Shown here in pieces: positions 25,924 through 30,600 of a stretch of DNA of 35,356 nt. Origin of the DNA: an uncultured Syntrophaceae bacterium (GTDB taxonomy: Bacteria; Desulfobacterota; SM23-61). The DNA lies in the NCBI GenBank assembly GCA_964537885.1, contig CAZIDC010000001.1, forward strand, positions 1 to 35,356. The letters are read 5' to 3'. Every line of letters starts with the position of its first letter. Position 1 is the stretch's first letter. The notes beneath the pieces are model-generated. The model was given only the letters and a program-made list of their open reading frames with translations. It made no database searches and had not been told where the DNA came from. The translations under genes and the position numbers were made by a program.

Positions 25924-26011
25924 TTTGCTTTCTGCCAAAGGTCTGTTCTCCTTTATTAAATTTAATAGGACGCAGATTTCCGCAGATAACAACAGTTAAG
26001 TACGTTGTTTT

Positions 26012-27183: not shown

Positions 27184-28944
27184 TTAAAAGAGTCCTTTCA
27201 CCTTGCCGGTCTTCACATCCACGTCGATCCTCCGGAAGGCAGGATCCGAGCTGGTTCCGGGCATCAGGCTGATGGTCCCGGCGCAAGGACAGAGAAACTT
27301 CGCCCCCGAATAAACCAGGATGTCCCGAATGGGCAGCGTCCAGCCTTTGGGGACTCCCTTGAGGGCTGGATCATGAGTTAAACTCAGATGAGTCTTGACC
27401 ATCATGGTGGAAAAATCCTGGAATTTGGGGTCGGACTCAAATTTCTTGGCTTTGGCGGTAGCCTCGGGCATCCAGGAAACGCCGTCCGCCCCGTATACTT
27501 TCTTGGCAATGGTCTCCACCCGCTGGCGCAAAGGCATCTCCAAAGGATAGAGAAACTTGAAATCCACTTTGTCGTTGCAGGCTTCGATGACCGCATCCGC
27601 CAGTTCCAGGGCTCCATCCCCCCCGTTGGCCCAGTGGGAGGATACGGCGCAGCGCGCCCCGGCCTGCTCGGCCGCTTTGCGGATCAGGGCAATCTCAGCT
27701 TTCGTATCCGTATGGAAGGAATTGACGCAAACGACGGGGTTGATTCCGGCCTGCTTGACAATGCCGATATGGTGGATCATGTTGGCCACCCCTTTTTCCA
27801 GGAGCGGCAAATTTTCCTTGGTATAGGAGGGATCCAGAGGAAGACCGGCCACCACCCGAGGTCCGCCCCCGTGCATCTTCAACGCCCGGACCGTGCTGGT
27901 GATTACCGAAACGTTGGGAATGAGACCGCTCAGCCGGCATTTGACATCCCAGAATTTTTCAAACCCGATGTCGGCGCCGAACCCGCTTTCGGTGACATGA
28001 TAATCGAACATTTTCAGGCCGATGCGGTCGGCGATGATGGAGGATTGTCCGACGGCGATATTGGCAAAGGGCCCGGCATGAATCATAACGGGCTGTCCTT
28101 CGACGGTTTGCATGAGGGTGGGGTTAATCGTGTTGCGCATCCAGGCGCACATGGCTCCGGCGACTTCGAGGTCGCTGGTAGTTACCGGATTGCCTTTTTT
28201 ATCGTAGGCTACCGTGATTTTGCCCAGCCTTTCCCGCAAGTCGGCCAGGTCCCGAACAATGGAGAGGATGGCCATGAGCTCGGAGCTGACGGCAATGCCA
28301 AACCTTGAGGACATCAGGAAGCCGTCCATTTTCCCGCCGATCCCCATGAGGATATTCCGCAATCCCTGGGCGCAAAAGTCTATCACCCAGCCCATTTCCA
28401 CGTTCTTGGAATCAATGTCCAGACGTTTCAGATTGCGCTTGGCCAACTGCTCGTCCGTGTAATTGGCTTCGTGCTGCATGCGGGCATTGAGGGCTACCAT
28501 AGCTAAATTGTGGGCATTCATGAGGTCATTGATGTCCCCCGTAAGCCCCATGGAGAACTCGGTCAGGGGAATTGCCTGAGCATTTCCCCCGCCGGCCGCG
28601 CTCCCTTTGATGTTCATGGTCGGCCCGCCCGAAGGCTGGCGGATGCAGCCGCCGACATTCTTTTTCCTTTTTCCCAATCCCTCGATAAGCCCCATAGAAG
28701 TGGTAGTTTTCCCCTCGCCGAGGGGGGTGGGAGTAATGGCGGTTACTTCGACATACTTGCCATCGGGCTTATGTCCCAGGCGGTTGATGATCTTCATAAA
28801 ATCGAGCTTACCCAGCCGCCCGTAAGGGATCACTTCATCCTTCTCCAGCCCCAGCTCTTTCTGCCAGTCCCCGATTGATTTCATATGCGCTTCGGCAGCC
28901 TCAGAGATCTGCCAGTCAGCCATTTTTACTGCATCATAGGCCAT
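27184..28944 (-). CDS. fhs: Formate-tetrahydrofolate ligase
   Basis: 586 aa. P-loop [20 protein letters not shown] Shine-Dalgarno 7 nt before the ATG. Confidence 0.95.
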
Positions 28945-29003
28945 TTCCTATTCCTCCTTTTTTTTAGTTTGCTGAATTCTTTTAAATTCTTTTCGCAGTA
29001 GCG

Positions 29004-29032
29004 ATTAGAAACACCCTTACCTCCTTGGTCAA
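29004..29032 (-). promoter_or_regulatory. Weaker proximal sigma70-like promoter candidate
   Basis: The minus strand reads TTGACC, a 17-nt spacer, then TCTAAT, about 60 nt upstream of the fhs ATG. Confidence 0.3.
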
Positions 29033-29385
29033 AAGGGGTCGGTGCAATCCTTACATGAAGATCATTCCTGGATGTTCCTGACCACCCCCTCCCTGAAAAA
29101 TTTTCCCCTTTTACGATTTACAACCCCGGCTATCCCGATCAAAAAATGCTTGTGGATTTGTTGCCGAAATCTCCTCGTCGCTTTTCCCCCAAAAGGAATT
29201 TTTATTGCCCCTGGACGATTCAGGTTGAATTTTTCAAAGTTGTAATTCGGTCGTTCTGGTTTCAGGCTCTTTCGTGGAGAGAAAAAGATCCGGGGTGAGG
29301 TATGGGTGAAAGAAAAAAGGATGGTGCTTTGTGTCCCCTGTCCTTTTCCCGAATACAAATGCCCAAAAGAACTGTTAAACATCCC

Positions 29386-29417
29386 CCCGGGGCAAAAGTT
29401 TCCTTTTGCCTCTCGGG
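29386..29417 (-). other. Stable RNA hairpin with a GNRA tetraloop inside the putative fhs leader
   Basis: The minus strand reads CCCG-aga-GGCAAAAG-GAAA-CUUUUGCC-c-CGGG. That is an 8-bp perfect stem, a GAAA loop and a 4-bp outer helix. Confidence 0.5.
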
Positions 29418-29548
29418 TTTGAACCGATTTAAACCAGATCAACTTAAAACACTTTAATCAACCTTTGAATCGCCATAAACCTGTAACGGTTTGCGGAACG
29501 AATGGTCTGAGGATGCCCGTTTTTCCAGAGATAAAATTTTTCGCCCGC

Positions 29549-29577
29549 ATTTAACCATATGTGGGATATCTTGTCAA
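29549..29577 (-). promoter_or_regulatory. Sigma70-type promoter with an extended -10, candidate main promoter of the fhs-to-fdhA cluster
   Basis: The minus strand reads TTGACA (29577-29572), then 17 nt (agatatcccacatatgg), then TTAAAT (29554-29549). The TG of the extended -10 sits in the right place. An A-rich stretch (gcgaaaaagc) lies just upstream. Confidence 0.55.
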
Positions 29578-29852
29578 GCTTTTTCGCCTTGAATTCTGCC
29601 GCTCTTTCTTTTTAAATTTCTCTTTTATTAACGCGAGAGTGGAAGGAAATGGAGGCGGGCCGATCCGCTCCAACAATTTTGGCTCTCCTTGCCCGGTTCC
29701 TTGGAAGAATCACCGCCGGATGATGATTCACGAATCACCCTAAAAAAATGGGGGAGACAGGCGATTCTCTCCAAAATAAATCCCCCTAAAAGGGGAAGGT
29801 GTGAAAAAATTCAAATCTGGATGGGGAAAACTCTTCTTGTTGTCCAGGGGTC

Positions 29853-29879
29853 GGAAAAATTCGTCCGCCTGAGGCGGAC
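29853..29879 (-). terminator. Candidate intrinsic terminator downstream of the cNMP-domain gene
   Basis: The minus strand reads GUCCGCC-UCA-GGCGGAC, a 7-bp GC-rich stem, followed by GAAUUUUUCC. The 3-nt loop is the minimum size. Confidence 0.5.
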
Positions 29880-30123
29880 CAAAATCGGGGGGACAGGAAT
29901 GATCCCCAACGGATAATATGCCTTCCGCGAAGGGACGCCGGCAACTTGGAACAAAACCATGTAGATACATAGGGATTGGCCTTCGGGCCTAACCGAAGTT
30001 GATTCCCCTGCCGGCAACAAGGAGAGCACCGCATCATTTTGGCAAGCGAATTTTTCTGGCCCCTGGACATGAGTGAAGCCTCTCTTTTCCCCCTACCCCA
30101 ATTTTTTCACAGCTTCGGGCGGA

Positions 30124-30600
30124 TCAGGAAACGGTTTCGGCTAACAGCGATCGGGTCCGGAAAAGGCGGGTGGCGATCAAGCAGGAGAACCTCTGAAGAA
30201 ATAACAAGCCAAAGGTTGGGTGGCGCTGGAATAGACGTTCCATGTCCTTCCCTTTGATCATAAGAACCTGACAATCCTCAAGAGCTTTGGCCGTAGAGGT
30301 ATATTTACGGGGATACACGAGCGCCGACCATCCGAAGAGGTCGCCTTTTTTCTTGACAATCCCCGTTATAAATTCCCCTTCCCCCTGGCGGCTGGAAAGA
30401 GCGACTGCCCCCTTCGAAAGAACTAAAAGGTGGCGAGCCCGGCTCTTCTCTTTGAGAATGATCGCCCCTTTGGTGAAGGAGACCTGGCGGAACAATGCGG
30501 CCAGTTCCTTTAGGACTTTTTCCGGTGCTCCCCGAAAATAGGAAGAACGCAGCAGATCTTTTGCAATCGTCCCGGTCGTGGATTTTGCTGTCGCTTTCAT
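30124..30600 (-). CDS. Stand-alone cyclic-nucleotide-binding (cNMP/CAP effector) domain protein without a DNA-binding domain
   Basis: 158 aa. Beta-barrel pattern F..A....L..L......F.KG..I ... GDLFGWSALV ... A.AL.D...L. The ORF ends right after the C-helix, so there is no room for an HTH. AGAGGGA Shine-Dalgarno. Confidence 0.75.
   Translation of the reverse strand: MKATAKSTTGTIAKDLLRSSYFRGAPEKVLKELAALFRQVSFTKGAIILKEKSRARHLLVLSKGAVALSSRQGEGEFITGIVKKKGDLFGWSALVYPRKYTSTAKALEDCQVLMIKGKDMERLFQRHPTFGLLFLQRFSCLIATRLFRTRSLLAETVS

Follow-up and report, generated by a model that had tools for sequence, protein, structure and literature searches.

The stretch analyzed here (the window: 35,356 nt, contig CAZIDC010000001.1) comes from an uncultured member of the Thermodesulfobacteriota, whose draft genome comprises 755 contigs and 3.79 Mb and whose order is represented by 17 species-level genomes of one family. 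Nearly all genes of the window lie on the minus strand. Among them are fhs, encoding formate-tetrahydrofolate ligase (FHS; 27184-28944, minus strand; PF01268, 719 bits), which is the first gene of an fhs-folD-hdrCB... cluster in which folD and HdrC/B-like genes follow downstream, and, upstream of fhs, a gene encoding a 158-amino-acid protein with a cyclic nucleotide monophosphate (cNMP)-binding domain (30124-30600, minus strand; PF00027, 63 bits). The two genes are separated by a gap of 1179 nt (28945-30123), the largest in the window, where other spacers between long minus-strand open reading frames (ORFs) do not exceed 235 nt. The upper edge of the gap is set by the TGA stop codon of the cNMP gene (30124-30126, minus strand), as placed by the ORF list and the Pfam match. 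An earlier note on this DNA had described the gap as gene-free and AT-rich and had assigned to all of it the regulatory logic of the acetyl-CoA pathway. The description was confirmed, since no credible ORF was found and the GC content was 0.43-0.48 in the gap against about 0.55-0.58 in fhs. The assignment fits the comparative data for a conserved fhs promoter and a folded leader domain, but not for positions 29792-30119, which are a MITE (miniature inverted-repeat transposable element) with its target duplication. Our analysis makes it reasonably probable that the gap consists of two unrelated parts, namely the MITE, inserted in the terminator of the neighbouring gene, and the fhs promoter with a long leader.

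The MITE occupies 29795-30116 (plus strand), is 322 bp long, non-autonomous and without ORF, and was delimited by BLAST copies, copy alignments and inverted repeats. Its terminal inverted repeats, 17 nt long and 94% complementary, lie at 29795-29811 (GAAGGTGTGAAAAAATT) and 30100-30116 (AATTTTTTCACAGCTTC), and across the aligned copies they read GAAG(C/G)TGTGAAAAAATT and AATTTTTTCACAGCTTC. A further inverted repeat is nested inside (29841-29863 and 30047-30069), and the element is flanked by a target-site duplication, GGG, at 29792-29794 on the left and 30117-30119 on the right. The ORFs of this region are chance ones only, running across the element. Comparison of the gap with its own genome by BLAST gave 32 matches, all within window positions 29777-30134, about 10 of them full length and many at contig ends. 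This dispersed repeat makes up 29% of the gap and had been overlooked in the earlier note.

Copies of the MITE at 66-85% identity were found in five relatives (three other genera). The 25 full copies, from six genomes, were 311-324 bp long and all had the same conserved ends. Their 3-bp flanks were identical in 16 cases, compared with 5.1 when partners were permuted (at most 12 over 1000 permutations) and with 0-4 when the frame was shifted. The end-repeat pattern occurred 20-107 times per relative genome against 0-7 times for a reversed control, and pairs of end repeats were about 80-150 and about 300-315 bp apart, indicating several deletion sizes with common ends. The MITE was also present at the same site in a relative whose FHS is 98% identical and whose DNA is about 96% identical. 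With no transposase ORF, terminal repeats, a fixed 3-bp duplication and dispersed copies, 29795-30116 is a MITE, and it is an ordinary, newly seen element of a known kind; no paper describing this family was found in the literature.

Short elements of 105-141 bp that carry the MITE terminal repeats around other cores were observed at G000 C147:128-268, C475:1198-1338 and C217:4432-4536. Two of them contain a palindromic unit, GTCATTCCGGCGAAAGCCGGAATCCAG...GGACCCCGG..CCGGGGTGAC, and this unit also occurs, there without MITE ends, in the fhs leaders of G008 and G012.

Most MITE copies lie on the 3' side of the loop of a C-run/G-run hairpin, as in CCCCCTTTGAAAAAGG^GGG (25 copies). At the present locus, a pattern scan detected a terminator-like hairpin and U-tract of the cNMP gene at 29771-29797 (minus strand; TTCCCC-TTTTA-GGGGGA followed by TTTATTTTGG), whose stem, 29797-29781, together with the U-run matches the pattern of an intrinsic terminator (GC hairpin plus U-run). 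Removal of the MITE and one GGG from the minus strand left TGA-TCCGCCC-TTTTA-GGGGG-ATTTATTTT, with the hairpin 5 nt past the cNMP stop codon. The MITE would thus have entered the 3' side of the loop of the cNMP-gene terminator hairpin, and the duplicated GGG/CCC would have rebuilt hairpin and U-tract at the far end of the element (29797-29771). A second terminator-like hairpin, GTCCGCC-TCA-GGCGGAC followed by GAATTTTTCC, lies within the MITE (29863-29879, minus strand; pattern scan and copy alignment); it has the sense orientation for read-through from the cNMP gene and is found only in copies with a 10-nt indel. The MITE would stand outside fhs regulation, save for pushing both genes apart.

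This insertion accounts for several features of the gap that had been read as regulatory. The C4-5/A4 block ccccctaaaagggg at 29782, listed in the earlier note among recurring blocks, is the terminator-like hairpin entered by the MITE. Likewise that block, a structured 270-nt tail or 3' untranslated region (UTR)-derived RNA, and a TGTGA-N6-TCAAA (CRP/Rex) half-site were all rejected as candidates, being parts of the MITE or of its target site. The stable hairpins that had been described are real in that both the leader (z = -3.3) and the MITE (z = -2.9 and -4.8 on its two strands) fold better than shuffled sequence, whereas the recurrence of C/A blocks was overstated, the window having just two exact sites, at 29186 and 29782. 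The pattern CCCCN0-2AAAAGG gave four overlapping matches against 1.0 expected, a number reached by 3 of 100 shuffles.

A search for DDE transposases in the relatives pointed to a possible parent of the MITE. In G015:C198 a perfect 17-nt MITE end (GAAGGTGTGAAAAAATT) lies 180 nt past the 3' end of a transposase gene that is split into two ORFs. These matched NF033551 (IS1182) with 248 and 140.5 bits, each under the 270-bit cut-off but together over it, and carry the Pfam domains DUF772, DDE_Tnp_1 and DDE_Tnp_1_6. In a truncated relative of this insertion sequence (IS), from G004, 13 of 17 positions agree with the MITE end. The MITE may therefore be an internally deleted relative of an IS1182-family IS of this lineage, moved by transposase acting in trans. 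Another candidate parent, an 826-bp pair of end repeats (L213; G004:C7:310588-311413), was rejected, since its GC-rich insert carries no transposase and is a group II intron-like fragment within a MITE; the reverse strand of the insert reads KESYGEGVATHTGPESCAGGRK..., which we take to be a motif of group II intron RNA regions.

On the fhs side of the MITE, a sigma70-like promoter aimed at fhs was recognized at 29547-29577 (minus strand) by its conservation upstream of fhs. It consists of a -35 element TTGACA (29577-29572), a 17-nt spacer ending in TG (29557-29556) and a -10-like element TTAAAT (29554-29549). An AT-rich spacer (29578-29770, minus strand) separates the terminator from the promoter; it is unique in the genome, is 96.7% identical in the close relative L247 and includes an A-tract, GCGAAAAAG (29587-29579), which lies just upstream of the -35 element and is conserved in relatives. 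The minus strand from 29587 to 29547 thus reads GCGAAAAAG-C-TTGACA-AGATATCCCACATATGG-TTAAAT. By E. coli rules the -35 element matches at 6/6 and the -10 element at 4/6 positions.

The block AAAAAnCTTGACAAGA...TATGnT(T)AAAT was present in 11 of 12 family genomes with fhs. Of the 23 fhs loci examined in metagenomes, where FHS is about 82-92% identical, 18 had it, as did 2 additional loci of a genome collection. The alignment of fhs-upstream regions called for in the earlier note therefore brought out a promoter block shared by about 30 loci, always aimed at fhs and 236-682 nt from its ATG. The upstream neighbour varies (helix-turn-helix regulator, glyoxalase-like or ACT-domain genes, the cNMP gene here), and since the block points at fhs despite these differing neighbours, it travels with fhs. 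Genome-wide, the 15-mer AAAAnCTTGACAAGA gave 16 matches at one mismatch or fewer, upstream of a rho-like and other genes, compared with 3 for a reversed control. The AAAAnCTTGACAAGA block thus appears to be the generic strong-promoter form of this lineage rather than a specific operator. A specific transcription-factor site at CTTGACAAG was weakened as a candidate by the recurrence of the 15-mer upstream of many unrelated genes, and a sigma54 reading of the block was rejected by eye, there being no GG at -24. Several of the AAAAnCTTGACAAGA sites (for example G000 C138:4550, C97:801 and C354:2187) lie 350-435 nt from the next long ORF, including that of the rho-like gene.

Transcription from this promoter would start near 29542-29540, and we infer a start near 29540 and a leader of about 595 nt (28945-29546, minus strand) that would form a single transcript with fhs. 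In every relative with the promoter, the corresponding leader would measure 250-680 nt. The leader ends in a Shine-Dalgarno (SD) sequence AGGAGG (28958-28953) before the ATG (28944-28942, minus strand). No paper describing this leader was found in the literature. At the expected transcript start, directly after the -10 element, a 9-4-9 palindrome, AATGAACGAATAATCATTCATT, followed by TTTTT was observed in genera g2 and g7 (G001, G012, G014, G006, G010 and metagenome leaders); it may act as an operator, or else as a 5' stem-loop or attenuator, and it is absent from this genome. A heptamer, GGTTGCC, occurs about 75-95 nt after the promoter at a fixed distance in most clades, including those without the domain described below (for example L017, L018 and L019), its counterpart in this genome (about 29480-29470) being CCGTTACAGG; no consistent hairpin was found around it in the relatives' leaders.

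The leader also contains a conserved folded domain of about 180 nt, which keeps its length and pairing among relatives. In 9 of 10 diverged sequences, from two genera and related metagenome contigs, it was 179-182 nt long, with a mean column identity of 76%. The RNAalifold consensus contains eight helices, including a hairpin of the AAGAGAA...UUCUCUU type, inner stems and a long-range helix in which, in the relatives, a pyrimidine strand, CCAUUnCUCUCCUCCC, pairs with a purine strand, AGGAGGGAGGUGG. The fold was assigned to fhs-sense RNA because the long helix contains conserved U-G pairs, in whose place the opposite strand would have A-C. In the MAFFT alignment 88% of cells were paired, compared with 49-66% when partners were slid by 1-3 columns, and both-side changes occurred in 17 cells, a value reached by 5 of 500 shuffles. 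A 14-sequence alignment made with a covariance model gave 86.9% paired (49-64% slid) and both-side changes in 18 of 43 pairs (33 cells; 0 of 500 shuffles), support that is moderate and not proof, since this alignment was fitted to the structure of the model and its sequences are related. RNAalifold on a 12-sequence MAFFT alignment of the whole leader was too noisy for use.

The covariance model, R1, was built without the sequence of the window and detected a diverged copy of the domain at 29074-29361 (minus strand) with a score of 32.2 bits (E = 2.7e-6 in a search of 295 kb from fhs loci). This copy keeps the outer hairpin as AAAAGGA...UCCUUUU, which is compensatory relative to AAGAGAA/UUCUCUU, and it keeps the long helix, with pyrimidine strand CACCCAUACCUCACCCC and purine strand GGGAGGGGGUGG; a 152-nt insert takes the place of the 43-nt apical part. 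Each genome had one strong R1 match, always in the fhs leader, and a search for a regulon in this genome, in its family and in its order returned fhs leaders only, plus one partial match on a REP-like palindrome. With no regulon beyond fhs, there is no hint of a ligand. These results suggest that the domain is a new candidate cis-regulatory RNA of a narrow lineage. The partial match (G000 C121:4269-4344; L209 1500-1576; 26.5 bits) is a C-run/G-run palindrome, CCTCCCTTTATAAAAGGGAGG AATTCCCCAATTTGGGAAAGGGGGGAG, which resembles the domain apex and the preferred target hairpins of the MITE alike.

Insertions in the leader differ among genomes. The present one has an insert of 152 nt, close relatives carry a repeat of 116 nt, and the leaders of G008 and G012 contain palindromic repeats of other kinds. 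The 116-nt repeat, a heptad array (GGACACAGATGAACACAGAT...ATCTGTGTTTATCTGCGAAAATCTGTGTCC), was found in two close relatives with 98-99% identical FHS (L247 685-800 and L246 1-92), at the equivalent of about position 29220, within the apex of the domain. The earlier note was right that heptad-array elements are missing from the gap, yet one sits in the matching leader of these two relatives. Dozens of copies of this repeat were observed in the present genome, one of them at window positions 25955-26011. A second, decayed MITE fragment may lie within the 152-nt insert (29186-29245), although the similarity is a 21-nt match (29196-29216) to the MITE inner repeat only (19/23; E = 0.009). Beside it a weak match to a MITE end was noted.

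Several observations, besides the dependence of the 14-sequence alignment on its model, weigh against the interpretation of the gap as a MITE in a terminator next to a promoter with a long regulatory leader. The -10 element has no A at position 2, which is why the promoter is absent from the listing of a rule-based scan. Outside the promoter, the leader has no BLAST-level similarity in other genera, and the tolerance of large insertions indicates that much of it is unconstrained. Constraint on the non-coding DNA gave a mixed result: in one close relative non-coding identity was 96.7% (822/850) against 92.0% (263/286) at fhs four-fold sites, whereas in a second the values were 96.4% and 96.5%. 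In a whole-genome R1 search the window copy was not significant (E = 0.4). Strong R1 matches came from two genera only and weaker ones from a further two, including g7 (26 and 16 bits), and in genera g8 and g9 the promoter is kept and no domain is detectable by R1. As to the parent of the MITE, the second end of the G015:C198 element lies off its contig, so that one end is seen, and in another genus, and there is no IS1182-type transposase in the assembly of the present genome. Finally, the SD is predicted to be mostly unpaired in this genome, so that the switch described next would be least visible here.

The domain would set fhs expression after transcription start. In the proposed mechanism, the pyrimidine strand, which resembles an anti-SD sequence, would pair with an upstream purine-rich, SD-like decoy (of the AGGAGGGAGGUGG type), leaving the real SD free and translation on, or with the real SD AGGAGG, turning translation off. 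Which of the two pairings forms would be decided by whatever binds to the domain or melts it. Partition function predictions for 12 leaders paired the SD with the pyrimidine strand in 5 of them (p = 0.5-1.0), and across the leaders the domain is not followed by any consistent terminator. SD switching is proposed here as a hypothesis drawn from these predicted folds. As a speculative extension, which we regard as improbable on present evidence, the domain could represent a novel type of RNA sensor (a riboswitch, or an element responding to a protein or to temperature) that gates, through the choice of SD pairing, how formate enters the Wood-Ljungdahl methyl branch in this uncultured order of the Thermodesulfobacteriota.

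The same promoter could instead drive a separate small RNA (sRNA) of about 150-180 nt ending at a hairpin with a U-rich stretch near 29391-29352, fhs being transcribed from a proximal promoter with a leader of about 53 nt and the domain being non-functional or part of another transcript. A possible weak promoter, TTGACC-17 nt-TCTAAT, can be read from the sequence at 29004-29032 (minus strand), but it has no -11 A (position 2 of the -10 element) and is unaligned in other genera. A pattern scan placed a terminator-like site at 29391-29362 (minus strand), followed by CATTTGTATT, and a hairpin plus U-run stands at the matching place before the domain in the relatives of genus g2; the hairpin at 29391, however, can form only with numerous G-U pairs, and its U-tract is weak. 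The 5' block with GGTTGCC is kept in more clades than the domain downstream, and the 5' UTRs of the Wood-Ljungdahl cluster in Eubacterium limosum are just 41-64 nt long by differential RNA sequencing (PMC5651825), both of which would suit this reading. On the other hand, the domain lies downstream of where the putative sRNA would end and still shows constant length and pairing, which is hard to explain if it is untranscribed, and fhs is always the nearest gene in the direction of the promoter, even though the distance between them varies. A separate sRNA is therefore rather unlikely in our view, although it fits some of the evidence.

Apart from a generic promoter, the stretch might also be debris of small mobile elements (the MITE and REP-like C-run/G-run palindromes, with what is left of them), the domain being an old inherited palindromic repeat whose loop was repeatedly invaded and which has no regulatory role. 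The long helix of the domain does resemble the C-rich/G-rich palindromes flanking most MITE copies, the sole other R1 match in the genome, the partial one at C121, is such a palindrome, and the apex insertions differ among this genome, its close relatives, G008 and G012. The 21-nt match to the MITE inner repeat also fits an origin of this kind, but the 21-mer is less MITE-like in the relative of about 96% identity. Moreover, the domain occurs once per genome and in each case upstream of fhs, its 179-182 nt are kept though about a quarter of the positions differ, and 18 of 43 pairs have compensatory changes. We consider this explanation unlikely.

A hidden, decayed or unrecognized protein gene, or a riboswitch of a known class (THF-I, THF-II or ZTP), is largely refuted and very improbable: the gap has short ORFs only, and the longest (29062-29442, minus strand, 126 amino acids, TTG start) had no Pfam match and no translated similarity in relatives (tblastx and blastn against 29 other leaders) and would be broken by the 116-nt insertion of the relative with about 96% identity, while, although fhs and folD are among the genes that riboswitches typically control in Firmicutes, Rfam 15 gave nothing credible in the window on either strand (E up to 10; best real-looking score 14 bits) and matched no family in the loci of seven relatives (E up to 0.5). 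The earlier note had named two findings that would speak against a regulatory gap, namely a mobile-element remnant explaining the region and a lack of conservation between relatives. Such a remnant explains about a third of the gap, the MITE part, and conservation was found for both the promoter and the leader domain.

The cNMP-domain protein encoded upstream consists of the cNMP-binding domain alone, without a DNA-binding domain. Its best NCBIfam match was to the cNMP-binding insert of family 2B encapsulin shell proteins (45.7 bits, far under the cut-off), and its matches to CRP/FNR-type regulators were weaker than this.

Bacterial MITEs derived from DDE IS elements, such as MITEAba12 and Correia/NEMIS, are likewise short and ORF-less, with terminal repeats, a fixed-length duplication and tens of dispersed intergenic copies. 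They share with the present family size variants (here of 105-140 bp), a predicted rod-like RNA fold and insertion by gene ends; an end in common with an element that encodes a transposase would be a further parallel, as judged from the one end in G015. The 3-bp duplication and the preferred target, the 3' side of the loop in C-run/G-run hairpins, are traits of this family's own. IS1397 and ISKpn1 are IS3-family elements that insert in the loops of enterobacterial REP/BIME repeats. They too take a set position in palindromic hairpins located downstream of genes, whereas the present element appears related to IS1182 and its target was judged from 25 copies.

Like the leaders of the THF-I (RF01831), THF-II and ZTP (RF01750) classes, the fhs leader domain would be a structured sense RNA upstream of a folate or one-carbon (C1) gene, with a strand able to compete for the SD. 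It differs from them in having no Rfam match, in its larger size (about 180 nt) and in lacking a consistent terminator or expression platform; moreover, it is found at one locus only, in one uncultured order, with no ligand hinted at by a regulon. The methyl-branch cluster of Eubacterium limosum likewise has TTGACA-type promoters and AGGAGG, and UTR structure was proposed there to tune translation (PMC5651825). Compared with those UTRs, the leader proposed here would be about ten times longer and thus unusual, its length being read from sequence.

For annotation, these results mean that a third of an apparent regulatory desert is a transposon, which is also behind many of the breaks between contigs of the assembly. 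Very little is known of how the Wood-Ljungdahl pathway is controlled beyond the model acetogens, and a promoter 236-682 nt from fhs across the order, with a folded domain between them, offers a testable handle on post-transcriptional control of C1 entry in these uncultured relatives of sulfate reducers and syntrophs. If the domain binds a metabolite, it would represent a new riboswitch class; if it binds none, the locus still shows small mobile elements repeatedly reshaping a leader without destroying it.

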